Source: a virus
Lineage: Duplodnaviria > Heunggongvirae > Uroviricota > Caudoviricetes
Virus record (IMG/VR): IMGVR_UViG_2585427773_000003
Length of the DNA stretch: 64,000 bases
Strand: one strand, 5' to 3'
The notes under the pieces were generated by a model. The model saw nothing but the letters and a program-made list of their open reading frames with translations. It was not told the DNA's origin and ran no database searches. Shown one piece after another: positions 1,029 to 54,760 of the stretch. A program made the position numbers and the translations under genes. The first letter of the stretch is position 1. Each line of letters begins with the position of its first letter.

Positions 1029-1388
1029 TTAACCTTTTTTCATCAACTCTCGTTTGATTTCATCGGTACGCATCGTGACATCGGCAGCTGTGATCGCCTC
1101 GTTAAGTTTCACGATGTCCTCGATTTCCTGCGGTGACTTCTCTGCCAGATGGAAAATGGCTGCGCGAATCACGTCTGAACGGGTGAATTTCTCGAAGCGA
1201 GGGATGAACTTCATCATCTCCAGCAGTTCGAAGTATTCGTCCTCCAGTGACATTGTGCGGCTTTTAATTTTCTCTTTGCCACGAGTCGGGCGTCCCTGTG
1301 GTCTGACTGGTTGGCGCAAAGGAGTTGTGTTCTTAGCCGGTGCATCAGGCTCTTTGCGCTTTGCTAGGTCACCCATTTTCATGGACAT
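1029..1388 (-). CDS. Small partition protein, ParG-like RHH centromere-binding partner of ParA
   Basis: 119 aa, basic disordered N-terminus then predicted strand-helix-helix; start ATG overlaps parA stop (TAATG coupling). Confidence 0.5.
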   Translation of the reverse strand: MSMKMGDLAKRKEPDAPAKNTTPLRQPVRPQGRPTRGKEKIKSRTMSLEDEYFELLEMMKFIPRFEKFTRSDVIRAAIFHLAEKSPQEIEDIVKLNEAITAADVTMRTDEIKRELMKKG

Positions 1389-2056
1389 TATTCTTCTTCC
1401 TCCAGACTCAACAGATAATCTACAAATTCTTCAAACTCGGCTTCCGCCTTTTTGTCGCGCTCGCTACCGGTCATTTCAAAGATAGAGCGACCAGACTCTT
1501 CCGCATCATCATAGACGTTGCGGTTATATAGATTGACTGGCGCAGACTCGATTCCAAACGTCTCAACAATCTCTTTAGCCGCCAGAATGCGAGACACTTG
1601 TGATGGCAAAGCCGGGCACTGGTTCATGACCGCGCGGACCTTCACTTTATCGTTTACATTGCGAACATTGTCGATAATAGGATCGATGTCACGTAAAGAT
1701 TTCAAATCACGACGCTTAGGACGCAGCGGGATAATGATAACGTCAGCCATCAGCATCGCTTGTCGCTGAATTTCGGAGTCGAAGCCACCAGCATCTACCA
1801 CTACAAACTCAGCTCTACCCTGAAGCGATTTTAGGTGCTTAATGATGTCATCCTGAACGTATGCAAAAGGAATCAGCTCAAGGTCTTCGTTCTGTCGACG
1901 GTCTTCACACCAGCTCGTTGTCGTGCGCTGAATATCTATATCGGTAATATAAACCTTCTTCTTCTTTTTGACTTTCAGGCAAACGGCAATTTGCTGGGCA
2001 ACGGTGGATTTGCCAGGCCCGCCCTTTGTGCCGCCAACCACAAAGATCTTGGTCAT
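1388..2056 (-). CDS. parA: ParA-family partition ATPase (small, type Ib-like)
   Basis: Deviant Walker A GGTKGGPGKST near N-terminus, 222 aa; RBS aaggga upstream. Confidence 0.8.
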   Translation of the reverse strand: MTKIFVVGGTKGGPGKSTVAQQIAVCLKVKKKKKVYITDIDIQRTTTSWCEDRRQNEDLELIPFAYVQDDIIKHLKSLQGRAEFVVVDAGGFDSEIQRQAMLMADVIIIPLRPKRRDLKSLRDIDPIIDNVRNVNDKVKVRAVMNQCPALPSQVSRILAAKEIVETFGIESAPVNLYNRNVYDDAEESGRSIFEMTGSERDKKAEAEFEEFVDYLLSLEEEE

Positions 2057-2374
2057 TGGAGAGTTCCCTTTGCGTATATAATTATCGTCTGAAACAACTT
2101 GTTTTCTTATATGTGATATAGCCTAAATGCCTACGGCTGCGGTGTAAAGGTTAAATGGTAGGTTGTGATTAACAATTGGCAAACATAGCTTGTATTTGTC
2201 TGTTGAAAAAAGTAACAATGACATCTATATTACAAGTACGGTGATATGCCGTACACAATTTGATAATGCACACGTAATGGGCTATAGCCTTTTAAAGTAA
2301 TTTTTGAGTCGAAAACTCAGTTTGAACAGAGGAGATTGATGGCCTTCCTACATCACGGCCATCAGGAGGAATAC

Positions 2375-2644
2375 ATGTCAGCACTAAAAAAGCAGCGCAT
2401 CGATTTGAGATTAACCGATGACGATAAAAGCATCATCGAGGAAGCTGCCGCAATGTCTAACCAGAGCATTACTCAGTTTATGGTTAGCAGTGCATCTGAA
2501 CGTGCCGTGAAAGTTATAGAGCAACACCGTAGACTAGTTCTGAATGAAGAATCCTGGAATCTGGTTATGGACGCTATAAGCAATCCTCCGGCACCGAACG
2601 ACAAGCTGAAACGAGCTGCTGATCGTCTGAAAAGCATGGAGTAG
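2375..2644 (+). CDS. ataR: DUF1778 antitoxin (AtaR/TacA-like)
   Basis: MSALKKQRIDLRLTDDDKS...NEESW motif pattern of DUF1778 antitoxins; RBS aggagga; alternative start at 2339. Confidence 0.75.
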   Translation: MSALKKQRIDLRLTDDDKSIIEEAAAMSNQSITQFMVSSASERAVKVIEQHRRLVLNEESWNLVMDAISNPPAPNDKLKRAADRLKSME

Positions 2645-2651
2645 TTTACTC

Positions 2652-3173
2652 GTGAGCAATACAACGATAGAGATTTTCTCTGGAGAGAAAGATTATGATC
2701 TAAACGGTTTTGATTGCGGCGAAGAGTCACTAAACGCCTTTTTAGCCAACCACTTAAAAAGGCAGCATGAGGGAAAAATTCTTCGTGCTTATGTGCTTTG
2801 CACTCAAGAAGAAAGGCCAAAAGTGTTAGGATATTACACTTTGTCAGGTAGTTGTTTTGAAAAGGAGTCCTTACCTTCAAGAAGCAAACAAAAGAAGGTT
2901 CCTTATCGGAATGTTCCAAGTGTTACTTTGGGTAGGCTGGCTTTGGACAAGTCCCTTCAAGGTCAAGGATTTGGCTCAATGCTTGTAACACATGCAATGC
3001 GCGTTGTGTACAATGCATCTCTTGCTGTAGGCATTCATGGACTTTTCGTTGAGGCGTTAAATGACAAAGCCAAGGCGTTTTATAAAAGTTTAGGCTTTAT
3101 CCAGCTGGTTGGTAACAACGAGCGTTCTTTGTTCTATCCTACAAAATCTATCGAAAAATTGTTCGACGAATAA
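2652..3173 (+). CDS. ataT: GNAT acetyltransferase toxin (AtaT/TacT-like tRNA acetyltransferase)
   Basis: GTG start; YDLNGFDCGEE, LGYYTL, SVTLGRLALDKSLQGQGFG motifs as recalled for AtaT-family toxins; 8 nt after antitoxin stop. Confidence 0.75.
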   Translation: MSNTTIEIFSGEKDYDLNGFDCGEESLNAFLANHLKRQHEGKILRAYVLCTQEERPKVLGYYTLSGSCFEKESLPSRSKQKKVPYRNVPSVTLGRLALDKSLQGQGFGSMLVTHAMRVVYNASLAVGIHGLFVEALNDKAKAFYKSLGFIQLVGNNERSLFYPTKSIEKLFDE

Positions 3174-4702: not shown

Positions 4703-5538
4703 ACATGAGCGCCGTAAATTGCCCCAACTTTAGTCCAAGTTGGAGCATTACCAGTAACAGCTTTACCAGCTGCTCCGCCGTTATATTCTGTACCGTTACC
4801 TTGAGTATTACATCTTCCTCCAGCAGCACCGACATTACCACCCGAACCGCCTGTATATGCACTAAGAGACCCCTCACCAACAGATCCTTTACCAGGAGCG
4901 GAAATAGTACCAGCAGTTGCACCGGAACTCATATGAGAGGAAGACCCACCAGCACCGAATGGGCGACCACCGCCGCCGCCAAATATTAGTTTACCCCTGT
5001 TACCGCCGCCACCGCCGCCGCCACCTCCAGCGATTGCACCATTATTCGTAATACGCAAGCGTGTACCGATGCCATTATTAATTGCGTTACCACCAGCAGC
5101 ACCGGCAGCGTTACTACCACCATTGCCACCGCGTCCATAGACAGTCACACCTGCGTTGATTACAAGGCTGATATAAGAGTTGGTAAGTGAACTCGGGAAA
5201 TCTAAACATGGCACGCCGCTACTGGACGACACCAGATCCCCTGTAATGGTAACAACGACTGGCGTCGCCCCCTGGGATTTTAAATAGTTGATCAGTGTGT
5301 CTTTGTTGTAGTTATGATTCGCACCGATGCTGTACTGAATTTCCTTAGAACGACCTGCTAACTGAGACATATTCCCAGCAGCAGACAATTGCACCGCCGT
5401 TCGAGCTGCACTCATCCATCTCTGGCCTGTCACACTGACAGCCGAAGACCCAATCCAACCGGGAACACCGACAATTGGCACATCTAATCTCCTTTTTGAT
5501 GTGAATATCCTGAATTGGTGAGGGGGGCCCCTCACCAT
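4699..5538 (-). CDS. Glycine-rich tail-fiber-associated protein (possible receptor-binding tip/adhesin)
   Basis: Immediately follows tail fiber gene with RBS aaggtga; poly-Gly tracts (GGGGGGGGGN) and G/S/N/T-rich composition. Confidence 0.4.
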   Translation of the reverse strand: MVRGPPHQFRIFTSKRRLDVPIVGVPGWIGSSAVSVTGQRWMSAARTAVQLSAAGNMSQLAGRSKEIQYSIGANHNYNKDTLINYLKSQGATPVVVTITGDLVSSSSGVPCLDFPSSLTNSYISLVINAGVTVYGRGGNGGSNAAGAAGGNAINNGIGTRLRITNNGAIAGGGGGGGGGNRGKLIFGGGGGRPFGAGGSSSHMSSGATAGTISAPGKGSVGEGSLSAYTGGSGGNVGAAGGRCNTQGNGTEYNGGAAGKAVTGNAPTWTKVGAIYGAHV

Positions 5539-8500: not shown

Positions 8501-10401
8501 GCGCCATCAACATAGAACACAGAGCGCAAATCATCGCCCTTATTACTCATCATTATTGAGTGGATGGCTCGTTCATTGTTTTGATATTGCCAGAACATTC
8601 CATAAGCATAACGCCCCCTGTCAGTCCAGCCGCCAGGCATAACAAATCCGTTAAACTCGCAGTTATTCATCGGATCGCCTGCGGTTCGCGTTGCCGTGGT
8701 GATAATGACCCTTGATGCCAGTTCGCTTACTGAGCCAGCAGAACGCATAACAACAACAGGGTAATATTTTCCAGATGTTGCACCTGCAGGAGCGTTAACC
8801 CGCACATAACGCATACCACGCTTATCAGCAAAGTCTGTTTTACTGACCGCGTTAATGTTGTTCAGGAAGCGTCCCTTATCGGGTATATCAGCGCCGTTCT
8901 GGTCTTTCTGCAGACGTTTCTCTGCATTGTCATAGGCTGATTTTACTGCCTTTGGCGTTGCCGCCAGCGTTTCAGACGTACTGTTGGTCGCACTGCTGAG
9001 CTGTACTATCCCCTTTTTCGTCGTGCTCGCATCCTCAAGCGCCACGGCGGATGCAATATCCTCTGCCCGTTTTGCCGCTGTCTCGGCGCGCGTTGCCGCG
9101 GATTCCGCCGTACTTTTGCTCTGTGCTGCCGCCGTCGCACTGCCAGCTGCCTCTGTCGCCTTCGTGGATGCTGTCGTGGCGCTGCCCTTCGCTGCGGACG
9201 CTTGTCTGGTCGCCTCATCTTTTGAAGCAGACGCAGATGATGCCGATGACGCCGCCGAACTGGCGGACGATGCGGCAGCCGTTTTTGAGGATTCTGCGCT
9301 GGTTTCCGACGCTTTCGCGTTCGTCTCGGATGTCTTCGCTGCGGAAGCAGACCTCGCTGCTGCGCTGGCCTGTTCAGTGGCTTCGCCAGCCTTCGTTGTG
9401 GCTGTTGAAGCAGACGATGCGGCACTTTCTGCCGATTTTCCGGCGGCGGTGGCACTGGCTGAGGCCTGCCCGGCACTTGTTGACGCGGCACTGGCAGACG
9501 ACGCAGCCGCTGTTTTTGAGCCTGCCGCAGCCGAGGCGCTCTGTCCCGCTGCCGTTTCAGAAGACCTGGCGTTTGTCTCAGACGTCTTTGCCGCCTTCGC
9601 GGAATTGCCTGCCGCCGTTGCCGAGGAAGCGGCACTACTGGCGCTCGAGGCTGCGTTAGTTTCTGATGATTTCGCTGCCTCTTTTGAGGCCGCCGCATCC
9701 CGGGCTGAGGTGGCAGCTTCTGACGCTTTCGTGGTCGCGGTGGATGCAGAAGTGGCTGCAGATTTTTGTGACGCTGCAGCATTCGTTTCAGACGTTTTCG
9801 CGGCACCGGCACTGGTGGCCGCCGCGCTTTTTGAGGACTCTGCAGCGGATGCACTTTGAGACGCTTGAGAGGCTTTTTCTCCAGCGGTATTGGCGCTTTC
9901 TGCTGCTGCGGCAGCACTGGCCGCCGCCTCACGAGCTTTGTCGCCAGCAGCGTCAATCGCGTCGGTGTTATTTTTATACCACTCAACGTTTTCGTTGTGC
10001 TCGTTGACAATCTGTATCAGCGGCTTAACGGTCACTTCTGTACCGTCTTCACGCTCGATTGTCACCTCATCCAGCGCAGTCAACCAACTGCGCATGGACT
10101 TGGAATCAGCCGACATACGCGACATTAGCGCAGTAAAGCGCGCGCTAAACTGTGTTAAGTCGCCTTCATAGGTCGTAATGATTCGGCACGGAACCTCAGA
10201 CTGAGTTTCGCCGGTATAAGGTTCTGAGAGAACAATATTCGTATCGCTTATTACGCGCTTGATCTCATACAGCTTATTGTCGGGGCCAATGACGATCATC
10301 CCCGGCAACACACCATTAGCTGTTACGTTCCAGGCTGTCCCTGCCCCAACCAGAGTATTGCTACCCTGTGTAAATGTGATAGTACCTTCCCTGTACCACA
10401 T
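5548..10401 (-). CDS. Long tail fiber protein with C-terminal intramolecular chaperone (peptidase S74-like) domain
   Basis: 1617 aa; Ala/Ser-rich low-complexity coiled segment; C-terminal SDRRSKRNI...IAQDVQ...VEAVKELREEV pattern typical of self-cleaving chaperone domains. Confidence 0.75.
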   Translation of the reverse strand: MWYREGTITFTQGSNTLVGAGTAWNVTANGVLPGMIVIGPDNKLYEIKRVISDTNIVLSEPYTGETQSEVPCRIITTYEGDLTQFSARFTALMSRMSADSKSMRSWLTALDEVTIEREDGTEVTVKPLIQIVNEHNENVEWYKNNTDAIDAAGDKAREAAASAAAAAESANTAGEKASQASQSASAAESSKSAAATSAGAAKTSETNAAASQKSAATSASTATTKASEAATSARDAAASKEAAKSSETNAASSASSAASSATAAGNSAKAAKTSETNARSSETAAGQSASAAAGSKTAAASSASAASTSAGQASASATAAGKSAESAASSASTATTKAGEATEQASAAARSASAAKTSETNAKASETSAESSKTAAASSASSAASSASSASASKDEATRQASAAKGSATTASTKATEAAGSATAAAQSKSTAESAATRAETAAKRAEDIASAVALEDASTTKKGIVQLSSATNSTSETLAATPKAVKSAYDNAEKRLQKDQNGADIPDKGRFLNNINAVSKTDFADKRGMRYVRVNAPAGATSGKYYPVVVMRSAGSVSELASRVIITTATRTAGDPMNNCEFNGFVMPGGWTDRGRYAYGMFWQYQNNERAIHSIMMSNKGDDLRSVFYVDGAAFPVFAFIEDGLSISAPGADLVVNDTTYKFGATNPATECIAADVILDFKSGRGFYESNSLIVNDNLSCKKLFATDEIVARGGNQIRMIGGEYGALWRNDGAKTHLLLTNQGDVYGGWNTLRPFSIDNATGELVIGTKLSASLNGNALTATKLQTPRRVSGVEFDGSKDITLTAAHVAAFARRATGSYADADGGVPWNAESGAYNVVRTGESYILANFYTGVGSCRTLQIKAHYKNGGLFYRSSRDGYGFESGWEQVYTTGFMPQPADINAPTAAAGWLNSGNGTAFTTAQFITWLNNQGAFSNKYWIARCSWAYANNNYIDDTGCGRIDLSGSVIEVFSNKSTSHYTIRVTTTTTSGHGGVNNAEFIYVYNGSDYAPGWRRSYNTRNKPTASDVGALSLSGGALTGGLTAAGEIISKSANGLRIAYGNYGFFIRNDGSNTYFMLTASGDTLGSWNGLRPIIINNTSGAVTIGNGLNVTGGINGSLNGNAATATKLQTARTIGGVSFDGSANINLPGVNIAGNQNTTGNAATATKLQTARTINGVSFDGSKNIELTPRSIGTINSATMSFSGGAGWFKLATVTMPQASSVVYISLIGGAGFNVGSPQQAGISELVLRAGNGNPKGITGALWRRTSVGFTNFAWVNTSGDTYDIYVEIGNYATGVNIQWDYTSNASVTIHTSPTYTANKPTGLTDGTVYVIYSSHIKPTAADVGALSLSGGQLNGALGIGTSSALGGNSIVLGDNDTGFKQNGDGILDVYANSAHVFRFVNSTLQSLKPLSVTGDITSSAWVYANRFSINSGSGAWIDMRNQNVIFGRNAVSTSSAQALLRQDHADRKFFLGGLGNSQFGFYMINNSRTANGTDANAYLQNDGTWVCGGNGSFNDVYIRSDRRSKRNIRKIERALDKLDRIEGVLYEIQVCDRYEQSGGLIAQDVQNVQPELVTVDHNDQSGEPRLRLNYNGVIGMLVEAVKELREEVRELKAKM

Positions 10402-10494
10402 GTTGAATATGCTCCTTGATTTAGCGGGTTATCCTTGCCCGCCATTAAGTAAATACTTACCTATTTTTACCGATATAAAATTTTTTTTCCACCA

Positions 10495-13400
10495 TCACAG
10501 ACGGCCAATTCTTACTCGTAGGACGTTGTTATCGTCATAAACGTCAATCCGCTGACCATTTATAACCAATCGCCCATTGCCGCCGCTATTACCGTTGATC
10601 TCAAGCGTTCCATTTTTGCCGAACCGCCATCCAGATCTACCGCTAACAAAATTGGTAGATTGCAGATCGCCTACTTTTGCATTGGTGATTGTGCCATCCT
10701 TGATATACGCTCCATTCATATAGGCGATACTGTTTTCGATAACAAATGGCGTTGTGATCTTCCCGTTAACAGAGTTGACCAAACCAAACCTGTCCGCCTG
10801 AACCAAAAACTGAGATAGCCCAGTGGTGTCAATACCAAGCGCAATACCGGCAACATACTTCTGCCCTCCGCTCGTTGAAGTCTCCATTTTCAACGTCCAC
10901 GCGGTTGATACTTTTTTGTTGGTATCAGCAATAGCTGTTGCCTGCTGTTGAATTGTCGCGGTATTTCCATCCACCTCTGCTTTCAGAGTATCGATTCGCC
11001 CACTCAGAGCATTATCTGCCTGCGTTCTCGCTGTCGTTTCAGTTGTTACCGCCGCGGAAATGTTGGCTGCCGTTTGAGACTCTAAGTTTGTGATTTGAGT
11101 CGCCAATGCAGCATCTTGCTCTGTACGCGTTTTCGTTTCGGTTGCTACAGCCGCTTTAATATCCTCTTTGTATTGAGAGGTCAGCTTGGTGATCTGAGAC
11201 GACAACGCCGAGTCAGCATCAGTTCGAGCCTGCGTTTCAACTGCAACGGCCGCACTAATATCTTTCGCTGTCTGTGCTTTTAAACTTGAAACCTCTTTTG
11301 TTAAAGCGGTATCACCATCTGCACGAGCCGTTGTTTCTCTGGCAAGAGACGCCTCGAGATCATTAGCTTTTGCTGTAAGAGACGTAATCTGGGTAGACAA
11401 TGCACTATCGGCATCAGTCCTTGCTTTTGTCTCTACAGCAACCGCTGCGGCAATATCAGTTCCGGTTTGTGCTCGCAGGCTGTTAATTTCTCGTGAGAGC
11501 GCCTGGTCAGCACTTGCTCTGGCCTCCTGCTCCTGAGTGATGGCAGCGGATATATCACCGTCAACCTTTGACTGAAGCTGGTTTATTTGTTTGGCTAACG
11601 CAGAGTCCCCGCTTGCTCGGGCCTCCTGCTCACTACGTATTGCAGCAGAAATATCATCATCAACCTTTGCCTGAAGTTGGGTGATCTGGCTTGCCAGAGC
11701 CGAATCTTCCGTTGCTCGGGCTTCTTGCTCTTCCTTAATAGCTGCGACGATATCGTTGCTTACTTTCGACTCAAGCTGAGTGATCTGTGTCGTCAGAGCT
11801 TCATCGGCAGATGTACGAGCCTCCTGCTCTGTACTAATCGCCGCGCTGATATCTCCTTCAAACTTAGATTGCAGCTGAGTGACACGCTTTGCCAACGCTT
11901 CATCGCCATCGGCACGAGCGGTGGACTCTTCCAGAATACTGGCCTTAATGTCTTCGCCAATTTCTACGCGAATTTCCTCAACCTTCGTGGCCATTGCAGA
12001 CATATCATCAGCAAAGGTTTTCTGTGTTGTTGCGATCTTCGCGTTATTGACCATCTGCTTGTGCTGGTCTTCATCTTGACGAAGAGCCAGGTCAATATTT
12101 GTTTTGGCTAACGCCTCAATGTTCGTAGTCAGTTCTGCACTTGCACGATCGACCTCTGCAACCGTCTTTTTCATTTCTTCAACGGCAGCGGAGCTTTCCT
12201 CTACCGTTGACTGCAACACTTCCAGTTGTTTAGCGTTTGCAGCATCGCCTTCAACACGAGCCTCGCTTTCCTTAGCAATAAGAGCCGCCGCTTCATCTCT
12301 TGCAGCCTTTATTGCCTCGACTGTATTAGCGAGAGCTTTATCGTGTTCAGATACGGTGTTTTCGATTTCAACAATTGCAGCATCAGTGGCATCAATTTTT
12401 TCAAACGCTTCATTGACCTTGTCGATCGTTGCCGAAACCTCACCTTTAAGCTCGGTTTGTGCGTTCTCCAAAGCATCGCTACGCTCGTTGAATTTTATTT
12501 CAAAACCCGCGAGGTTATCGTTGAACTGCTTATCTAATTCAGCTATATCTTCCTTAACGTCGTTTACCGACCCCTCCAAAGATTCGACGCTCTGGTTGAT
12601 ATGCTCATTTAACTCGTCAACTGCTTCTTGAGAGGCTTTGCTGTTGATGTCCTCAAGCAGAGCCTGACCAAGCTCGGAAGATGTAATTTTGCCAGTCAGG
12701 AACGACAGTACATCGCGAGTTGTCGCCTCTGTACCCAAATTTGAGTTCGGAGGACTTAACATACCTCGCTTGTTCGATGCTCGAACCCAGTAATACCACG
12801 TTTCACTATCCCCAAGACCAGCATGTGTAAAGGTGGTGCTTGCAGACTCTGCGATCAGTTTCGCCGTATCCAGATTGTTGGTCTGGGATGCGTAAACATT
12901 AATGTGATCAAGGTCTACCGAATCTGGATTAACCCAATTCAGTATCACATTACGATAGTCTCCAACGGCCGTTAATGACGTTGGTGCATCCGGCGGTGTC
13001 ATTGTGCCCAGCACCTGATAAACGGTACTGATAATTTCTGTTTTTTTACCGTTGAATGAAACCGCATACAGTTGGAAGTCGTAGCGTCCATTCTCCGCGA
13101 CATTAACGATTTCGTATTGCTCTTCGGTTACACGCGCCGATTGCCAGTTCGATACATTGTTTTCATCAGAACGTCGCCAACTGATCCAATACTCTGGAGA
13201 TTTCCCTTCCCATGTTGCAGTCAGTTTTACTGACAGGTTGCCAGGGCTTGAGAGATAAGTCCCTTCGGTTATTTGCAAATTAGACGGCTTGGAGTAAGTC
13301 GGGTCCAATACCGTCGTATTTTGCGGGATAAGCGTTGCACCATTGTCGATCGCCTCATATTTAGACGGATTGTTCTCAACAGCGGTGATGTCAAAGCTAC

Positions 13401-15228
13401 CCGGCGTTTCCCCCTGCGCGATGTTAACGATGCGAACACGCATAGGTTCGAGGTCTGGTTCTGTAATAGTCCAGACGCCGTTCAAAACAGGCGTTTCAGC
13501 CGAAGACAGGGATTTTGAAAACGTAACTTTTGTTATATTTTCGCCAGTTTCAAGAACATCGCGTTCAACGATTTTGCCTTCCTGATTCAGTATTCGAATA
13601 AAGCAGCCGCCTTTGGCTAACGACACCGGCGCATCGAGTGTGACGCTGTTTTTGGTAAACGCCACAATTCGACCTGAGTTACGTTTGCCTGCGCGATATT
13701 TGTTCTGAATCAGAACGGTTTCACCAGGCATCAGAAATGACGCGTCTAAGCCGGCAGTAAATGTAATTACATCCGACTCCATTCTGGCGGTATATAAAAG
13801 CCACAAACCAACTCGGTGAGCCTGCCCTCGGCTTGTACAGCCAAATGCTACGACTTCTGTTTTACGCTCACCATAACGGCGCATTGCGTCCTGATCTTCG
13901 ACGTACTCGATGTTTTGCTTATAACCGTCCTCCTTGTTGTTGTAGGTTACGAGCGCAACGGATGGGCGATCTTTACGCGCAGAACCTTTATAGGTAAACA
14001 ATCCATCTTTGACGTTAGAGTTGGTAAACATCATTACCGGATCTGATGGGCTATCCTGCATGATGTTAACCATCCCACCAGCCCAAAACACCATGCCGCG
14101 GAATGCTCCGGCAATATCCTGAATTAGCCGGTATGCGTCCTGTCGACTGGTGATCTGCGTATTGATTGCAAAGCGTTTCTCTTTGCCACCAAAGCCATCA
14201 TCGACCTCTTCGTCACAATATCGACCAATCTGGTACAACTGGCCAAGGTCAATCATAGATTCCGACACATACTGACCAAGGCCATATCGAGCATTGGTCA
14301 GCAAATCAAAGAGAATCCACGCGGGGTTCGAAGAAGACAACAGCTTAAAAGTGCCATCCCATACCCCAGCGTAAGTGTTACTGGACTCGTTATAGTTTGA
14401 AGGTACTCGAATTTTTAGGCCACGCACCAGATAAGAGCGAGATGGCATGGTGCTGCCGAATTGCTCAGAGTTTACCTTCAATCCAACCAAAACAGAGTTT
14501 GGATAGTTCATCGGTGTATCGACAATTTCCCCGATTGAATCCACCCATGTATCGTTATAGAGATACTGGCTACTGTTATCATCGGTAATACGGACCACAC
14601 GAACCTTGTATGCTCGTCCAGGCTTAGGCAGCTTCAGCTCATAGCTACGGTAATAAACGCCGGTCTTCTTTGCTGTTAGCTTAATGCCAACGCTTTTTTC
14701 ACCTTCAGCGACCACATCTACAAATGTTGAGTCGCCATTTGCTATCTGGAACTTGTACTCAACAGTCGTACCGTTCGTGTCACCAGTTTTTTTATCTATG
14801 CTTCGCAAAGAAGGAAACTTCATGATGACACGAACCCGATCAGCTTCATCGTTATCGATTGAAACCGTTACATAATGTGTTTTTTTTAACTGGATATTGA
14901 CGGATTTAGGCGTTTCAACGAAATCAAAGCCAGACATTGGAGTCTGGTCTTGTGAACCGTCGCGAAAATCCCATGTGATTCCGCTGAAGTTGGAGGAACC
15001 GTCTTCATTTACAATCGGCAGATCGTCGATAAAAATAGATCTTGCGCCATTTACTAAGCCGCCAATTACCCCTTCCCCAAGAAGATCGAGGATAGCGGCC
15101 ATTGCACGAGAATTTACGGTATCGTCGGCTTCAACCGGTGTACGGCTGGAGCTTTTGCTGCTTTTTTTACCACCCGCACCGGCAATAAACAGCGGTAGCT
15201 TTTTCTTCTTGAACTGTTCCATGTTCAA
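10495..15228 (-). CDS. Tail tip / host specificity protein (lambda J-like) with long coiled-coil repeat region
   Basis: 1577 aa; N-terminus resembles lambda J; about 12 tandem repeats of roughly 24 aa (DISAAI..EQEAR..AD.AL); start TTG at 15228 or ATG at 15222. Confidence 0.8.
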   Translation of the reverse strand: MNMEQFKKKKLPLFIAGAGGKKSSKSSSRTPVEADDTVNSRAMAAILDLLGEGVIGGLVNGARSIFIDDLPIVNEDGSSNFSGITWDFRDGSQDQTPMSGFDFVETPKSVNIQLKKTHYVTVSIDNDEADRVRVIMKFPSLRSIDKKTGDTNGTTVEYKFQIANGDSTFVDVVAEGEKSVGIKLTAKKTGVYYRSYELKLPKPGRAYKVRVVRITDDNSSQYLYNDTWVDSIGEIVDTPMNYPNSVLVGLKVNSEQFGSTMPSRSYLVRGLKIRVPSNYNESSNTYAGVWDGTFKLLSSSNPAWILFDLLTNARYGLGQYVSESMIDLGQLYQIGRYCDEEVDDGFGGKEKRFAINTQITSRQDAYRLIQDIAGAFRGMVFWAGGMVNIMQDSPSDPVMMFTNSNVKDGLFTYKGSARKDRPSVALVTYNNKEDGYKQNIEYVEDQDAMRRYGERKTEVVAFGCTSRGQAHRVGLWLLYTARMESDVITFTAGLDASFLMPGETVLIQNKYRAGKRNSGRIVAFTKNSVTLDAPVSLAKGGCFIRILNQEGKIVERDVLETGENITKVTFSKSLSSAETPVLNGVWTITEPDLEPMRVRIVNIAQGETPGSFDITAVENNPSKYEAIDNGATLIPQNTTVLDPTYSKPSNLQITEGTYLSSPGNLSVKLTATWEGKSPEYWISWRRSDENNVSNWQSARVTEEQYEIVNVAENGRYDFQLYAVSFNGKKTEIISTVYQVLGTMTPPDAPTSLTAVGDYRNVILNWVNPDSVDLDHINVYASQTNNLDTAKLIAESASTTFTHAGLGDSETWYYWVRASNKRGMLSPPNSNLGTEATTRDVLSFLTGKITSSELGQALLEDINSKASQEAVDELNEHINQSVESLEGSVNDVKEDIAELDKQFNDNLAGFEIKFNERSDALENAQTELKGEVSATIDKVNEAFEKIDATDAAIVEIENTVSEHDKALANTVEAIKAARDEAAALIAKESEARVEGDAANAKQLEVLQSTVEESSAAVEEMKKTVAEVDRASAELTTNIEALAKTNIDLALRQDEDQHKQMVNNAKIATTQKTFADDMSAMATKVEEIRVEIGEDIKASILEESTARADGDEALAKRVTQLQSKFEGDISAAISTEQEARTSADEALTTQITQLESKVSNDIVAAIKEEQEARATEDSALASQITQLQAKVDDDISAAIRSEQEARASGDSALAKQINQLQSKVDGDISAAITQEQEARASADQALSREINSLRAQTGTDIAAAVAVETKARTDADSALSTQITSLTAKANDLEASLARETTARADGDTALTKEVSSLKAQTAKDISAAVAVETQARTDADSALSSQITKLTSQYKEDIKAAVATETKTRTEQDAALATQITNLESQTAANISAAVTTETTARTQADNALSGRIDTLKAEVDGNTATIQQQATAIADTNKKVSTAWTLKMETSTSGGQKYVAGIALGIDTTGLSQFLVQADRFGLVNSVNGKITTPFVIENSIAYMNGAYIKDGTITNAKVGDLQSTNFVSGRSGWRFGKNGTLEINGNSGGNGRLVINGQRIDVYDDNNVLRVRIGRL

Positions 15229-38363: not shown

Positions 38364-38786
38364 ATGAAATACTCGCTTCTCCCTCTACTAACGTTACCAG
38401 TGTTGATGCTTACCGCGTGCCAATCACGCCCAATATCAATCCATGACGCCAAACCAGCACCGCAGGCCAAAGTGTTCAAGTATCAAAGCGCAGCGCCAGC
38501 TACGTTGGTGGTAATGAGAGACACAGGTTTTGTAGGAGCTGGATGTGATGCTTCCATTTTCATCAACGGCGAAACTGTCGCAAAACTGGCTACAGGCGAA
38601 AAAGCGACTTTCCATTTAAATGCCGGAGTATTAATTGTGGGTGCATCTCTTGAAGGTGCAGGTTTATGTGCTCTAAACCCCGCTCGTCAAGAGCGAGAAA
38701 CGACTCTGAAGAATGGAGACACAAAAGCGTTCAGGGTGTTCACCAGCAATTCTGGTGACATCGACATTCTGCCAACAACTCTGTGA
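38364..38786 (+). CDS. Lipoprotein
   Basis: Signal peptide MKYSLLPLLTLPVLMLTAC with lipobox LTAC. Confidence 0.5.
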   Translation: MKYSLLPLLTLPVLMLTACQSRPISIHDAKPAPQAKVFKYQSAAPATLVVMRDTGFVGAGCDASIFINGETVAKLATGEKATFHLNAGVLIVGASLEGAGLCALNPARQERETTLKNGDTKAFRVFTSNSGDIDILPTTL

Positions 38787-38790
38787 TGAC

Positions 38791-39315
38791 ATGACAACCA
38801 AAGATATTACCTACGGTATCCAAGCTGAACTCTGGCCGCGAGATTACACTAACGTTGAAAAACTACTGATGTTCTGGCGCAGAGAACAAATTCCTGTAAG
38901 GGTCACTCTCGAAGATGGCCAGGCGTTTTGCATGTACGTTTATGGCCTCATGCCATCTCGTAACAAAGTTGACCTTTGCCCAGCCCCTTTTGACAAAGAA
39001 AATCGTATAAGGCTCCCACTTGAACGCATTAGTACAATTGAATCAGGTGTGGTTGACAGTATCGCTCACGATTTCAAAGGTCGACTAACAGTTCACCCTG
39101 ATTATGTCGATAATCGGCCATCACGCCGCGATTTTTTTGCAATTTGCAACCAAGCCTACAAAGCAAACAAATCTATAAGGGTGTACATGGCGGATGGCCG
39201 TGAAATTGAGGGGGTGTCAGCAGGTGCAGATGCTTGTCAGGTTACACTACGTGTCGAGAACGGTAGAAAAATAGTTGTTTTGTTCGATTGGGTTGAACGA
39301 ATTTTGCCTTTTTGA
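38791..39315 (+). CDS. Hypothetical protein
   Basis: 174 aa ORF, ATG 5 nt after lipoprotein stop. Confidence 0.4.
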   Translation: MTTKDITYGIQAELWPRDYTNVEKLLMFWRREQIPVRVTLEDGQAFCMYVYGLMPSRNKVDLCPAPFDKENRIRLPLERISTIESGVVDSIAHDFKGRLTVHPDYVDNRPSRRDFFAICNQAYKANKSIRVYMADGREIEGVSAGADACQVTLRVENGRKIVVLFDWVERILPF

Positions 39316-44671: not shown

Positions 44672-45049
44672 CTCTTCATCCTCACTTCGTTTATATAACG
44701 TCTAAACATGTTGTTTACTTGTTGGTGTTATTATCGCAATAAGACAAAGGCGGAAAAGGATTTTATTCCGGTGAATGTGGTTTTGGCAGTGAGTTTTCAG
44801 GTTCAGTACCGAGTACACTTTTTACATTATTCTGATTTAGTGGCCGAATGTGGCTGGTGGCAGAGTAATCCTCTCCCCAAAAACCTACTGAAATCGATTG
44901 TGACCCGTTGGCTGTCTGGCACAATTACGCTGTAGCTGGGCATTCAGAGGGAATCCAGCGGTAAGCAAGTCCGCCTACGTGAGCGCCTCTCTTCTTCCCG
45001 CACATTACAGGTGGGTAGCCGCAACTCTCCCTCTCGCTATACCGGTACG

Positions 45050-45190
45050 CCACCGTTCCTGAGCCGGCATCGAGCCTTTTCCCGAAATCCACACAGGCAA
45101 CTCGACCGTTTCCCTGAAAACCTCCAGCCGTTCCCCGAAGGCAACCCAGCCGTTTCTGTAGCGGGATGCAGCCTTTTCCCTGTATGGACC
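45050..45190. repeat. Iteron-like direct repeats, cluster B
   Basis: Six units resembling (A/C)GCCGTTYCCCKGAA at about 21-23 bp periodicity. Confidence 0.5.
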
Positions 45191-45239
45191 GAAGGCTGAC
45201 CGTAGGGGTGTTACGGGGGGATAAAATCAGGAGTTGAAT

Positions 45240-46230
45240 AAATACGAAAAAGGAGGCGACACCCCTCCTTCCCTCCCCACTTATACATACCTGGCTTCTT
45301 CGCTATACATGTTGTGTTTTATCTGTCTCAACCTCTCTATAGGCGTTAATGCTCACTCCTTCCAGAATGTTCTATACGGCGACTATTTCTGTTGGTGAAT
45401 TGGGTGTGTTGTTTTCTCTGTCGGTGTATGTGGTTTCGTTCGTTTTGCGGTGGTTCTTCTATGGGGTGTTCTCGTCGTTTTGGTGATTGTTCTTCTCCGT
45501 GTATGGAGTAATGGCAGGTGGGCGATTCCTTTCGTTATTGTGTTTGAGTTGTTTGTCTGGAGTGTGTGAAAGGCTTTTGTAGTTATTCGTGTATTGGGTA
45601 ATGGCGTTTCCCGTGATTGTTATGCTTCGAGTCTTTTGGGATTGAGAGAATCCTTGCGGTTACAGGCTTCGTTGGGGTTTCAGTGATTCTGGTGTTTCTT
45701 CGCTGTTTGGGGAATGGCGTGTCGTGGGTATCGCGCGTATGAATGTTTTCGGATTGCCTGTGAAAGTTAGGTTGGTTGTCCGGTAGCCTGGGGAGAAGAG
45801 GTGGGTCTTTTCGGTAGCCTGCCATAAAGAGGTTGGTTGTTTTGGGTAATGGCATATGTGTTATTTAGTTGTTTTGTTATACCTGAAAATATGTTGTTTA
45901 TATGGTTGTGTAACGCAACGGGAGCGATTTTGAGCGTGTGTTTTTGTTGGTAGTGTGTTGAGTCGTCTGTGGTGAAAATTGGACTCTGTGGCGCTGTCTG
46001 CTGCGTAGAGTTACGGGTATAAGCAGTGATGTGTGAAAACGTCAATTTTTTAGACCAAATCGGGTGAAAGCGTTGATGTTTCGTTGATCTGTTATTCAGT
46101 TGTTTTCTTGATTGTATAAACAACTATAACTTATTGATATTTAAGGATGTGATTGCAGGTATTGAAGGGGAGTAGTGGCGATCAACGGATTCTTATAGAA
46201 AAGAATCAAATTGTGACCGCCATTATCAAT
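45240..46230. other. GT-skewed non-coding tract with dispersed repeats
   Basis: Strong G+T bias on plus strand; repeated GGGTAATGGC-like units about 100 bp apart; ORFs here are low-complexity and implausible. Confidence 0.5.
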
Positions 46231-47013: not shown

Positions 47014-47322
47014 TTACCAGTTCCAGCACTCAAGCCCTTCAACGACCGGCGCACCACAATCAAAATGTACAGAGTCAAAGCCTACATCAAGTACTTTCTG
47101 AATGTTAGCAATCGCGCCTTCGGATATACCATATCGACGCAAGTCCTCTTTCCAGACATCATCCTGTAACCCAGCGTGGACAATACAACCGCCGTCAATT
47201 TGTGAAACCCAATCCAGCTCATTGCTTGCGATCATGAATCGGCGAGCATCTTCCTCTGATGTATGAGATGAACTGATCAATGCCACCTGGTAGGCTTGGG
47301 TAATGTTCAACATTTCAACCAC
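47014..47322 (-). CDS. Hypothetical protein
   Basis: 102 aa ORF. Confidence 0.4.
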   Translation of the reverse strand: MVEMLNITQAYQVALISSSHTSEEDARRFMIASNELDWVSQIDGGCIVHAGLQDDVWKEDLRRYGISEGAIANIQKVLDVGFDSVHFDCGAPVVEGLECWNW

Positions 47323-47326
47323 TCCG

Positions 47327-47391
47327 AAACAATTTGTTTTCTTATGTGGCTTATTATCTCAATCAATAAAAGGTAGAAAACAAATTGTTTT
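47327..47391. promoter_or_regulatory. Two operator-like palindromes AAACAAtTTGTTTT / AAAACAAaTTGTTTT
   Basis: Immediately upstream of gene starting at 47322. Confidence 0.5.
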
Positions 47392-47428
47392 AGGGTTTGT
47401 TAAAGTCAGAAGGGGTTGTGTCTATATG

Positions 47429-47452
47429 AAAATGCCCAGCGTATTGCTGGGC
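47429..47452 (-). terminator. Rho-independent terminator of metG
   Basis: Stem gcccagc/gctgggc followed by T-tract on minus strand, 23 bp after metG stop. Confidence 0.7.
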
Positions 47453-47474
47453 ATTGTGAAGAATGGTTGCTTAA

Positions 47475-49508
47475 TTACTTAACCTGGTGGCCAGGTTTAG
47501 CACCGACATCCGGGCTTAACAGGAAGATATCTTTCCCGCCGGGGCCAGCAGCCATCACCATGCCTTCGGAGATACCGAAGCGCATTTTACGCGGAGCCAG
47601 GTTAGCCACCATAATGGTGTGACGACCAATCAGTGCCTGTGGGTCTGGATAAGCAGAACGGATGCCTGAGAAGACATTGCGTTTTTCACCGCCGAGATCC
47701 AGCGTCAGGCGTAGCAGTTTGTCAGAACCTTCAACAAACTCTGCGTTTTCAATCAGTGCCACGCGCAGGTCAACTTTAGCGAAGTCGTCAAAGGTGATGG
47801 TTTCCTGAATCGGGTCGTCTGCCAGTGGGCCAGTTACCGGTGCGGCTGTGGCTCTCACTTCTTCTTTGGATGCTTCCACCAGTGCTTCCACCTGTTTCAT
47901 ATCGATACGGTTATACAGTGCCTTGAACGGATTCACTTTATGGCCCAGCAGCGGTTGCTGGATACCATCCCAGGTCAGTTCTGTATTCAGGAATGCTTCT
48001 GCACGTTCAGTCAGTTTCGGCAGTACCGGCTTCAGGTACGTCATCAGCACGCGGAACAGGTTAATGCCCATAGAGCAAATCGCCTGCAGATCGGCATCGC
48101 GTCCTTCCTGCTTCGCCACCACCCACGGAGCCTGTTCATCGACATAGCGGTTAGCCAGGTCAGCCAATGCCATGATTTCACGGATAGCTTTACCAAATTC
48201 GCGGCTTTCCCATGCTTCGCCAATCACTTCAGCGGCATCAGTAAAGGTTTTGTACAGTTGCGGGTCAGCCAGTTCGTTTGCCAGCACGCCGTCAAAACGC
48301 TTGTTGATAAAGCCTGCATTACGGGAGGCCAGGTTAACCACTTTGTTCACGATATCGGCATTCACGCGCTGAACGAAATCCTCCAGGTTGAGATCGATAT
48401 CATCAATGCGCGAAGAGAGTTTCGCAGTGTAGTAGTAACGCAGGCTGTCGGCGTCAAAATGATTCAGCCAGGTGCTGGCTTTAATAAAGGTGCCGCGAGA
48501 CTTGGACATCTTCGCGCCGTTCACCGTCACATAGCCGTGAACAAACAGGTTGGTCGGCTTGCGGAAGTTGCTGCCTTCCAGCATGGCAGGCCAGAACAGG
48601 CTGTGGAAGTAAACAATATCTTTACCGATGAAGTGGTACAGCTCGGCGGTGGAGTCTTTCTTCCAGTATTCATCGAAGCTGGTGGTATCGCCGCGCTTGT
48701 CGCACAGATTCTTGAAGGAACCCATGTAGCCAATCGGCGCGTCCAGCCAGACGTAGAAATATTTGCCCGGCGCGTCCGGAATTTCAAAACCGAAGTAAGG
48801 CGCATCGCGGGAGATATCCCACTGTTGCAGGCCAGATTCAAACCACTCCTGCATTTTGTTTGCCACCTGCTCCTGCAACGCGCCGCTGCGGGTCCATGCC
48901 TGCAACATTTCGCTGAAAGAAGGCAGATCAAAGAAGAAGTGTTCGGAATCACGCATTACCGGGGTAGCGCCAGAAACCACCGATTTCGGCTCGATCAATT
49001 CAGTCGGGCTATATGTTGCGCCGCAGACTTCACAGTTATCGCCGTATTGATCTGGCGCTTTACATTTCGGGCAGGTGCCTTTTACAAAACGATCCGGCAG
49101 GAACATGCCTTTTTCCGGGTCGTACAACTGAGAGATAGTGCGGTTTTTAATAAAACCGTTCTCTTTCAGGCGAGTATAGATAAGCTCAGACAACTGACGG
49201 TTCTCTTCGCTGTGCGTCGAGTGATAGTTGTCATAGCTGATGTTAAAGCCTGCGAAATCAGTCTGGTGTTCCTGACTCATTTCGCCAATCATCTGCTCCG
49301 GTGTGATACCAAGCTGCTGTGCTTTCAGCATGATCGGCGTACCGTGGGCATCGTCGGCACAGATGAAATTAACCTCGTGGCCGCGCATTCGCTGGTAACG
49401 AACCCAGACATCAGCCTGGATGTGCTCCAGCATATGGCCGAGGTGGATTGAGCCGTTAGCGTACGGCAGCGCGCACGTCACCAGAATTTTCTTCGCGACT
49501 TGGGTCAT
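47475..49508 (-). CDS. metG: Methionine--tRNA ligase
   Basis: 677 aa; HIGH-type motif [16 protein letters not shown], Zn-knuckle CPKC...C..CG, C-terminal tRNA-binding domain; sequence recalled as very close to enterobacterial MetG. Confidence 0.95.
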
Positions 49509-49665
49509 AGTAGGCATTACTTCTTTGTAGTGAAAAGGGGCTTGATAGTAACAAAATGGCCTTATGTCTGCCATGTGATAACAGCATTTCTCATAAATGA
49601 TTAAATGTCGTAGCTGGAGTACACTACAAGGCGACAATTGCGCAAATTAAAATAAAGGAGACGGG

Positions 49666-50766
49666 ATGAGCGAGTCCAAATCGCCGGATGCCCTGAGAGC
49701 AATGGTAGCCGGTACGCTGGCTAATTTTCAGCACCCAACCCTGAAACACAACCTGACTACGCTTAAAGCGTTACACCATGTTGCGTTGATGGATGACACA
49801 CTGCATGTCGAACTAATCATGCCTTTCGTGTGGAATAAGCCTTTTGAAGACCTGAAAGAGCAATGTAGTGGTGATCTGCTCCGTATCACTGGCGCAAAGG
49901 CTATTGACTGGAAGCTGTCGTACAACATTGCCACGCTTAAGCGCGTCAAAAACCAACCAGGCATTAATGGCGTTAAGAACATTATCGCCGTCAGCTCAGG
50001 CAAGGGCGGCGTGGGTAAATCCTCCACGGCGGTAAACCTGGCACTGGCGTTGGCTGCTGAAGGTGCGAAAGTTGGTATTTTGGATGCCGATATCTATGGT
50101 CCATCAATTCCAACCATGCTGGGCGCGGAAAACCAACGTCCAACCTCACCTGACGGTACTCACATGGCACCTATCATGTCTCATGGCCTGGCAACCAACT
50201 CTATTGGTTATCTGGTCACCGACGACAATGCAATGGTGTGGCGTGGACCGATGGCCAGCAAGGCGCTGATGCAGATGTTGCAGGAAACTCTATGGCCTGA
50301 TCTGGACTATCTCGTTCTCGATATGCCGCCGGGCACTGGTGATATTCAGTTGACGCTGGCGCAGAACATTCCTGTAACTGGTGCGGTTGTGGTAACTACG
50401 CCGCAAGACATCGCGCTGATCGATGCGAAGAAAGGCATTGTGATGTTCGAAAAAGTCGAAGTGCCGGTACTGGGTATCGTCGAAAACATGAGTGTGCATA
50501 TTTGCAGTAACTGCGGTCATCACGAGCCAATTTTTGGCACCGGTGGCGCACAGAAACTGGCCGAGAAATACAACACGCAGTTGTTAGGCCAAATGCCACT
50601 TCATATCTCTCTTCGTGAAGATCTGGATAACGGAACACCAACCGTTATTAGTCGTCCAGATAGCGAATTTACGGCTATTTATCGTGACCTCGCAGATCGC
50701 GTTGCCGCCCAAATGTATTGGCAAGGTGAAGTAATACCTGGCGAAATCGCATTCCGCGCAGTGTGA
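49666..50766 (+). CDS. apbC: Fe-S cluster carrier ATPase ApbC/Mrp
   Basis: 366 aa; P-loop SGKGGVGKSS, CxxC motif CSNCGH; divergent from metG as in Enterobacteriaceae chromosomes. Confidence 0.95.
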   Translation: MSESKSPDALRAMVAGTLANFQHPTLKHNLTTLKALHHVALMDDTLHVELIMPFVWNKPFEDLKEQCSGDLLRITGAKAIDWKLSYNIATLKRVKNQPGINGVKNIIAVSSGKGGVGKSSTAVNLALALAAEGAKVGILDADIYGPSIPTMLGAENQRPTSPDGTHMAPIMSHGLATNSIGYLVTDDNAMVWRGPMASKALMQMLQETLWPDLDYLVLDMPPGTGDIQLTLAQNIPVTGAVVVTTPQDIALIDAKKGIVMFEKVEVPVLGIVENMSVHICSNCGHHEPIFGTGGAQKLAEKYNTQLLGQMPLHISLREDLDNGTPTVISRPDSEFTAIYRDLADRVAAQMYWQGEVIPGEIAFRAV

Positions 50767-50792
50767 TAAAAAGGCGGTGCATTGCACCGCCT
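50767..50792. terminator. Bidirectional hairpin terminator between apbC and umuD-like gene
   Basis: aggcggtgcattgcaccgcct hairpin flanked by A-tract. Confidence 0.6.
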
Positions 50793-50803
50793 AATCAGTT
50801 CTC

Positions 50804-51193
50804 CTACATCACGGGACAATCATCAAACTCGCCACTTCTTGCGTCGTTGATAATGTGAGTGATCACACCAAACACGGCATTGCTGCCCGTGCATCCATCG
50901 TCATCCTTTGGCAATGCTTCCTTCTTACCGGTTCTTAAATCCTCCAGATGCTGACGTGGGTACTTCCGGTATCTTTTTACGCGATATTCCCCATCCAGAG
51001 CGCATACAAGCAGAGAACCATCAACCGGGGTAAGTGAGGAATCGACCACCAGCAATGCACCCTGTAATATTCCCTCACGATGATGACTATCAGCTGCCCT
51101 CATGAAGTAGGTCGCTGAAGGATGTCTAATTATCTGCTGATCAAGAGAAATACGGCTCTCAGCATAATCCGCCGCAGGAGAAGGGAAGCCCAT
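50804..51193 (-). CDS. UmuD-like S24 peptidase (LexA/UmuD family)
   Basis: FPSPAADY...HPSATYF...DS...VDGEY.VKRY pattern matching UmuD; Ser/Lys dyad positions retained; perfect LexA box upstream. Confidence 0.75.
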   Translation of the reverse strand: MGFPSPAADYAESRISLDQQIIRHPSATYFMRAADSHHREGILQGALLVVDSSLTPVDGSLLVCALDGEYRVKRYRKYPRQHLEDLRTGKKEALPKDDDGCTGSNAVFGVITHIINDARSGEFDDCPVM

Positions 51194-51209: not shown

Positions 51210-51229
51210 TACTGTATACACATACAGTA
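51210..51229. promoter_or_regulatory. LexA (SOS) box TACTGTATACACATACAGTA
   Basis: CTGT-N8-ACAG perfect palindrome 17-36 bp upstream of umuD-like ATG. Confidence 0.8.
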
Positions 51230-54622: not shown

Positions 54623-54760
54623 GTGTTTTTCTCTTCTTTGCTGTTACATAAGCACTACCAAGTGCTGGTTTATTTTCACAAATAAGAAAAGGTAGAAAAC
54701 AATTTATTTAAGGCCATAACTTATGGCCTTTATTTATTCATGCAGAAGGATTTGTAGCGC

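Follow-up and report, generated by a model that had tools for sequence, protein, structure and literature searches.

An SSU5-group phage-plasmid of Escherichia with a probably old, host-derived metG-apbC cassette

The metG-apbC pair lies in a variable bay between phage operons

We analyzed a 64,000-nt stretch of the virus record IMGVR_UViG_2585427773_000003 (Duplodnaviria; Heunggongvirae; Uroviricota; Caudoviricetes), hereafter the window, in which two host-type housekeeping genes, metG, encoding methionyl-tRNA synthetase (MetRS), and apbC (mrp), encoding an iron-sulphur (Fe-S) cluster carrier, sit side by side within phage-like DNA. The locus comprises the following features:

47327..47390, minus strand: left conserved edge of the bay, a promoter/operator module with two exact copies of the palindrome AAACAAnTTGTTT, 87% identical to phage-plasmid SSU5
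47432..47454, minus strand: terminator hairpin 3' of metG, fold of -17.6 kcal/mol, followed by UUUUCAU
47475..49508, minus strand: metG, complete MetRS of 677 aa (Pfam architecture)
49509..49665, no strand: divergent intergenic region of 157 bp, where both promoters are presumed to lie
49666..50766, plus strand: apbC/mrp, Fe-S cluster carrier P-loop NTPase of 366 aa (Pfam PF10609)
50772..50792, no strand: GC-rich hairpin where apbC and the umuD-like gene converge (terminator scan; folds of -17.5 and -18.6 kcal/mol)
50804..51193, minus strand: umuD/humD-like S24 peptidase gene (Pfam and PHROG matches)
54670..54740, minus strand: conserved right-hand edge of the bay (86% identity to SSU5), containing at 54697-54709 a palindrome with one mismatch

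Both genes are intact and, as an earlier note made from the sequence had stated, keep their usual arrangement, diverging from the 157-bp spacer in the layout of mrp and metG in Escherichia coli K-12. The MetRS domains, those of the class I, E. coli-type dimeric enzyme, are complete (Pfam tRNA-synt_1g, E=3.9e-166; Anticodon_3; C-terminal tRNA_bind), and the HLGH and KMSKS motifs and the four zinc-knuckle cysteines are all preserved. ApbC carries the NUBPL/ParA domain PF10609 (E=2.4e-102) with an intact Walker A motif (GKGGVGKS, residue 112) and an intact CSNC (CxxC) motif at residue 280, and its residues 87-295 are identical to those of K-12 ApbC.

Homology to the chromosome ends exactly at the metG and apbC stop codons. 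Within the intergenic region, the 55 nt beside metG resemble the chromosome and the core is phage-plasmid-specific, sharing 77% identity between Salmonella and Escherichia phage-plasmids versus 49-54% with chromosomes. The hairpin 3' of metG had been taken for the native terminator of the gene, a view that has to be abandoned: it is common to all the phage-plasmids compared, from Escherichia and Salmonella, and differs from the chromosomal terminator. The hairpin at 50772..50792 is probably a terminator for both directions, since an A-run precedes it on the plus strand and a T-run is found on the minus strand.

Around the pair, just two short islands are conserved relative to SSU5, one at each edge of the bay and both with the palindrome. 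In the left one (47327-47395, 87%), the operon 47014..47322 is preceded by a -10-like hexamer, GATAAT, with a AAACAAnTTGTTT copy on either side of it (47327-47339 and 47378-47390). The bay between them spans 7.3 kb (~47.4-54.7 kb) and holds here metG, apbC, the umuD/humD-like gene and Ea22-type genes; in SSU5 their place is taken by others, among them ydfZ-like and HD_4 (RelA/SpoT-type hydrolase) genes. To the right of the umuD-like gene the content differs among relatives, with a type I restriction-modification system at this place in the E. coli plasmid pHH107-1.

The bay of related elements contains further genes of this kind. An HD_4 gene is found in SSU5 (SSU5_099, locus coordinates 11175-11816) and in the E. 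marmotae plasmid NZ_CP146383 (13926-14567). Host-type der, which encodes the ribosome-biogenesis GTPase EngA and is ~91% identical to the E. coli chromosomal der, directly follows apbC in two phage-plasmids, NZ_CP146383 (locus coordinates 9703-11175) and the E. coli plasmid NZ_CP148383. We interpret der as another captured housekeeping gene with a link to translation, the second such case in this bay, which seems to collect genes touching translation or the stringent response (der, HD_4).

The window is a stretch of an SSU5-group phage-plasmid

The window is 99.9% identical to pHH107-1 (109.7 kb, circular), which matches positions 47300-50900 over their full length, and ~98% identical to Cyrano (pLF82). 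The 3.6-kb region and both flanks are collinear, at 96-99.9% identity, with complete circular plasmids of ~110 kb and with phage records. The best-matching replicons are closed circular plasmids of 107-114 kb, and plasmids of Shigella sonnei match the 3.6-kb region at 97-98%. Four phage records match the pair region, among them Cyrano, CMS-2020a and PhiR41_1, the last deposited as a phage with K-12 MG1655 as host; these records cover 87-96% of window positions 40-64 kb at 96-98% identity, and Cyrano and pECOH89 match this stretch at 95-98%. Virions of Cyrano have been described (PMC9928086). SSU5 aligns with the flanks at 67-89% and lacks the pair.

The gene content agrees with this assignment. 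The open reading frames (ORFs) flanking the pair match phage protein families (PHROGs), in keeping with the phage-type genes reported earlier on both sides, and tail, capsid, portal, terminase and ParA/ParB-like genes lie elsewhere in the window. ParB-family genes are annotated in the collinear pHH107-1, and the partition ATPase candidate of the window is:

1388..2056: ParA/MipZ-like ATPase (profile match)

The same element carries the nucleotide-metabolism genes nrdAB, thyA and dfrA. Within the 64 kb we found no replication initiator gene, no tRNA gene and no match to any Rfam family.

Portal and terminase, which belong to a siphovirus structural and packaging module homologous to that of SSU5, matched 757 plasmids of the SSU5 group. 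They are at least 95% identical in 185 Escherichia/Shigella plasmids, ~83% identical to Salmonella and Yersinia pMT1 relatives, and more distant in a further ~570 plasmids of Klebsiella, Enterobacter, Yersinia and Salmonella. By sequence, we assign the window to the Escherichia clade of SSU5-group phage-plasmids (pECOH89, pLF82-Cyrano, pWPMR2 type).

The idea that a single element spans the pair, a phage-plasmid with captured host genes, is borne out by the collinearity with circular ~110-kb plasmids and by the palindrome, which is a feature of the SSU5-group backbone. Its opposite, an assembly chimera or two separate islands with att sites, is excluded because more than 200 independent closed replicons share the arrangement; no integrase has to be invoked. 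The explanation in which we have high confidence is that of an Escherichia-clade SSU5-group phage-plasmid with an old, host-derived metG-apbC cassette in a variable accessory bay.

The pair is nearly universal in the Escherichia clade

In the plasmid database PLSDB, the pair occurs in 202-212 plasmids, 190 of them at 95% identity or more. The carriers are almost all non-mobilizable plasmids of ~110 kb from E. coli, S. sonnei, E. albertii and E. marmotae, pECOH89 included. At this same threshold, 190 plasmids have the pair and 185 have portal and terminase. Almost every member of the Escherichia clade therefore carries the pair, which is seldom found outside the clade and is lacking in SSU5 and in pHCM2-type and Klebsiella relatives.

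Among 5,426 complete E. coli genomes, apbC of the phage-plasmid type was found at 222 places on plasmids (215 at 95% identity or more) and never on a chromosome. Chromosomal apbC was found at 5,426 places, one per genome, at 82-83% identity to the phage-plasmid allele and with nothing intermediate. The second, chromosomal copy that the earlier note had thought worth looking for is present: a full-length chromosomal metG-apbC place exists in 5,425 of these genomes. From the apbC counts it follows that the element is present in ~4% of genomes, is never integrated and leaves the chromosomal copy always retained.

apbC and metG have different histories

The phage-plasmid apbC forms an allele class of its own, with 82% nt and 94.8% aa identity to E. 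coli. Its synonymous divergence (dS) from K-12 is 1.55, comparable to that between K-12 and Salmonella (1.36), and only 0.05-0.18 among phage-plasmids. In the tree, the phage-plasmid alleles form a single long branch (bootstrap 100), which is sister to Escherichia with a bootstrap of 99 when all codon positions are used and a weak 42 with positions 1+2. No extant donor above 82% nt identity was found among the at least 80 species-representative loci listed. A GC and codon profile, proposed earlier as a check, separates the two genes: the GC content at third codon positions (GC3) of phage-plasmid apbC (51-53%, and 53% in the window; K-12 62%, chromosomal alleles 60-66%) lies nearer to that of the backbone genes (44-50% in 6/7 genes sampled), and metG is K-12-like (61% in the phage-plasmid, 62.6% in K-12). 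These data indicate that apbC is an old lineage that has diverged and drifted toward phage-plasmid composition.

The ApbC protein is invariant in the seven phage-plasmids compared, with 74 polymorphic codons synonymous and none non-synonymous. The ratio of non-synonymous to synonymous divergence (dN/dS) of the cassette genes is 0.02-0.05; this strong purifying selection acts on both proteins, so both appear to be used.

metG is 94.2% (nt) and 98.2% (aa) identical to K-12, with a dS of 0.27 and a dN/dS of 0.03, and its dS reaches 0.35 among phage-plasmids. In a neighbour-joining tree, the phage-plasmid metG falls inside Escherichia (bootstrap 100), with K-12 nested among the phage-plasmid alleles. 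The metG genes of pECOH89 and of the S. sonnei element have long K-12-like blocks between window-like blocks, and the latter shows no difference from K-12 across 240 nt. Runs tests on these mosaics gave p<0.0001 for both, and p=0.0007 for PhiR41_1. We read this as repeated patchwise overwriting of metG by recombination with the resident chromosomal gene, so that the plasmid metG would stay host-matched.

In the Salmonella phage-plasmid CP053410, which has a distant backbone, the pair occupies the same position. This pair is 97% identical to the chromosome of S. enterica subsp. arizonae (dS 0.07 and 0.04). Its surroundings are of a different kind: the 150 nt 3' of metG, where the terminator of the phage-plasmid type is kept, share 74% identity with the window versus 57% with the Salmonella chromosome, and for the intergenic core, which matches in length, the corresponding values are 77% and 54%. 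These values point to replacement of both genes by Salmonella alleles inside the same phage-plasmid junctions. The top hit labelled Enterobacter hormaechei B56 (CP170191) has a metG-apbC region with 100% identity to E. coli K-12, which makes mislabelling or contamination of this record probable.

The simplest reading of these patterns is one ancient capture followed by recurrent exchange. A single capture is favoured because homology stops at both stop codons and because the terminator and the intergenic core are common to phage-plasmids and not to chromosomes. We hypothesize that two genes and their intergenic region were taken from a chromosome of the Escherichia lineage, and that the cassette gained its own terminator after capture. 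It would then have resided for long in elements of the Escherichia clade under strong purifying selection, a record kept by apbC, and recombined repeatedly with the chromosomal alleles of its hosts, which replaced metG in patches and, in the Salmonella element, the pair as a whole.

Proposed expression and possible consequences for the host

With its own terminators and promoter region and no backbone operator (no AAACAAnTTGTTT site with 0-1 mismatch was found inside it, the intergenic region included), the cassette would therefore be expressed independently of the phage programme. In our model it would act as a moron: a replicon with ~5 copies per cell would express it during the plasmid (lysogenic) state, and the host's own MetRS and ApbC would thereby be supplemented. 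The copy number of Cyrano is 5.5 per cell (PMC9928086), and published LF82 data place its apbC homologue 9-fold above background in lysogens (background ~10, floor 5).

That a phage-plasmid carries metG is already known as a core finding, the cargo being annotated in hundreds of plasmids. As described in the text of PMC12452169 that cites Tam et al. 2024 (medRxiv 10.1101/2024.10.27.24316207), phage-plasmid-borne metG (pWPMR2, S. sonnei) promotes antimicrobial survival, and metG expression created a subpopulation predisposed to acquiring resistance. Going by this citing text, an extra, variable metG could lead to tolerant or persistent subpopulations and better survival of antibiotics. pWPMR2 has been placed in the SSU5 group together with E. 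coli relatives (bioRxiv 10.1101/2025.09.12.675607). The evolutionary details of the cassette may add to the published work; possible additions are its near-fixation in the Escherichia clade, the old and invariant ApbC, the patchwise exchange of metG and the host-matched replacement in Salmonella.

Phage-plasmids are transmitted by infection and maintained thereafter as multi-copy plasmids. When one of them carries a housekeeping aminoacyl-tRNA synthetase, host physiology can be altered in many strains, and the metG cargo is linked, in the citing text mentioned above, to antibiotic survival in epidemic S. sonnei.

Several points weigh against this reading of the cassette. A consensus promoter scan of the intergenic region gave nothing above threshold, and the promoters placed there are inferred. 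The direction of exchange (from chromosome to phage-plasmid, or between phage-plasmids) was deduced from two chromosomal Escherichia reference alleles. In the LF82 data, the metG homologue of Cyrano is weak, at ~16 units (~1.6-fold; background and floor as above), a value that cross-mapping with the 94%-identical chromosomal metG may blur; strong over-expression of MetRS is therefore not seen in that strain and condition. Finally, an antibiotic phenotype leaves the strict conservation of apbC unexplained.

This conservation may mean that the element itself depends on the Fe-S carrier or on the divergent promoter unit. We tentatively consider that the cassette, rather than simply adding antibiotic tolerance, could be a long-standing near-core module, in which ApbC and not MetRS is the ancient, strictly kept partner and metG a permanent recombination partner of the chromosomal gene. 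If so, metG alleles, those for tolerance among them, could travel with infection from strain to strain and from species to species, and the replacement of the Salmonella type would fit such traffic.

Other explanations for the cassette

The cassette might instead serve the phage, with MetRS (initiation capacity) and ApbC (Fe-S delivery) boosting the lytic burst or plasmid replication and antibiotic survival arising as a side effect. A pair nearly fixed in its clade and a long-conserved ApbC fit selection at the level of the element, which carries other self-sufficiency genes (nrdAB, thyA, dfrA) and whose relatives hold der or a RelA/SpoT-type HD hydrolase gene in the bay. However, a cassette without a backbone operator is not wired into the phage programme, and the relatives named above (SSU5, pHCM2-type, Klebsiella) manage without it. 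We consider this explanation unlikely, if still worth keeping in mind.

A recent, incidental pick-up from a current E. coli host, for example by aberrant recombination, would make the two genes neutral passengers. The similarity of metG to K-12 (94% nt, 98% aa) and its nesting among Escherichia alleles would suit such an event. The apbC gene contradicts it, since its identity to each of the 5,426 E. coli chromosomes is just 82-83%, without intermediates, and its GC3 is shifted toward the backbone. A recent event also sits badly with the strong purifying selection and with a pair that nearly all of the Escherichia clade carries and that recurs at this junction in the distant Salmonella backbone, and we judge it very improbable.

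A third explanation concerns a toxin-antitoxin module at the other end of the window:

2336..2644, plus strand: TacA/DUF1778 antitoxin (Pfam TacA1, E=8.6e-26)
2652..3173, plus strand: GNAT toxin, AtaT/KacT-like (Pfam GNAT and PDB matches)

The AtaT-like toxin that the earlier note had recognized on the same element is indeed there, together with its antitoxin. In a PDB search, the toxin matched AtaT (6GTS and 6AJM, E ~1e-79) and KacT (5ZGN, 3.5e-75). The domain pair appears to fit the AtaT-AtaR type II layout; a specificity for Met-tRNAfMet is not inferable from sequence. The co-occurrence of this toxin with a Met-tRNA ligase gene had been raised as worth testing; in a functional tie, metG would offset the element's own acetylator of charged initiator Met-tRNA. 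The toxin is ~70% identical to AtaT, and module and cassette co-occur in the window and in Cyrano. Nevertheless, the toxin is nearly as close to KacT as to AtaT, the module is absent from many relatives with metG, PhiR41_1 being one, and the toxin is found in 145 PLSDB plasmids versus 202 with metG-apbC, including unrelated large plasmids, some of them conjugative. The module lies 45 kb from metG beside the parA-like partition gene, like an ordinary addiction module. N-acetylated product is removed by peptidyl-tRNA hydrolase, not by MetRS, and to our knowledge extra MetRS cannot strip the N-acetyl group. We rejected the link on the distribution of toxin and pair, and regard it as extremely improbable.

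Capture of essential genes for addiction, with the chromosomal metG/apbC decaying until the phage-plasmid becomes indispensable, would suit two housekeeping genes, metG being essential, but it was rejected on the chromosomal copy counts (apbC retained in 5,426/5,426 complete E. coli genomes, a full-length metG-apbC place in 5,425; no carrier with an inactivated chromosomal metG seen at copy-count level, frameshifts not checked) and has next to no probability.

A dispersed palindrome and the umuD-like gene

The operator-like motif said to occur on both sides of the pair is there, with exact or one-mismatch sites left and right. The palindrome AAACAAnTTGTTT (AAACAANTTGTTT) has 7 exact copies in the window versus 0.02 expected by chance, and AAACAANTTGTTT has 14 copies at one mismatch or fewer. 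Its sites start at the following positions:

42176, 42940, 43843, 44327, 44704, 47327, 47378: AAACAAnTTGTTT sites left of the pair
54697, 59237, 59966: AAACAAnTTGTTT sites right of the pair
2092, 32815, 32840: further AAACAAnTTGTTT sites in the window

On the minus strand, each site follows a -10-like hexamer (GATAAT, TATTAT) at a distance of 13 nt and precedes a start codon by 10-35 nt; some promoters have a second site further upstream. Such sites are found ahead of many early operons as well as of the parA-like operon and the late operon of the small terminase. There are 8 exact copies in 21 kb of SSU5 sequence, and none was found in 559 kb from 81 enterobacterial chromosomal loci. The palindrome looks like a dispersed operator of a global regulator of the element, and we propose it as a candidate; the regulator is probably the lysogeny repressor, which is encoded outside the window and has CYRAN_45 as its homologue in Cyrano. 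A literature search found no described SSU5 operator or repressor.

The umuD-like gene next to the cassette is 80-85% identical to P1 humD and is preceded by the following site:

51212-51227: LexA box CTGTATACACATACAG, upstream of the umuD-like gene and overlapping its promoter

In the published LF82 data, the Cyrano homologue of this gene is high and rises from log2 7.4 to 12.3 inside macrophages, an induction that fits the LexA box.

Other features of the window

Positions 44740-46230 form a 1.5-kb region without an annotated gene in close relatives, with 67% identity to SSU5 and a plus strand strongly enriched in G+T. Its short repeats include three copies of GGGTAATGGC, and it could encode a non-coding RNA or have a role in replication. 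The gene at 38713-39315 has a strong match to the FljA family ('repressor of phase-1 flagellin', E=2.5e-84), and relatives annotate a transcriptional regulator. A tandem-repeat search of the window returned a 99-nt repeat (2.2 copies, 76% matches) at 11513-11730, inside the 1577-aa tail-gene ORF 10495..15228, and nothing else. The neighbouring 1617-aa ORF has a stretch of 61% GC at 9-10 kb and strong AT skew.

Comparison with known systems

The closest systems are the pWPMR2-type elements of S. sonnei and E. coli, which have the same backbone clade and the same metG-apbC cassette; among them, the window represents an E. coli member nearest to pHH107-1 and Cyrano. Cyrano (pLF82) and pECOH89 share the cassette, the toxin-antitoxin pair and the umuD-like gene with the window, and their metG alleles differ from it in mosaic blocks. 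SSU5 and pHCM2 share the gene order, the dispersed AAACAAnTTGTTT sites and the edges of the bay, but metG-apbC is absent.

Like prophage morons, the cassette lies between phage operons and has terminators and a presumed promoter region of its own, and the Cyrano homologue of its apbC gives transcripts in the lysogen. Unlike them, it consists of duplicate core housekeeping genes rather than virulence or defence genes, and these appear to be still recombining with the chromosomal original. The dispersed palindrome recalls the C1 operators of P1, where one short operator likewise occurs at many promoters (partition, early and late operons) of a phage-plasmid. The P1 C1 operator is asymmetric, whereas the site in the window is a perfect 13-bp palindrome.

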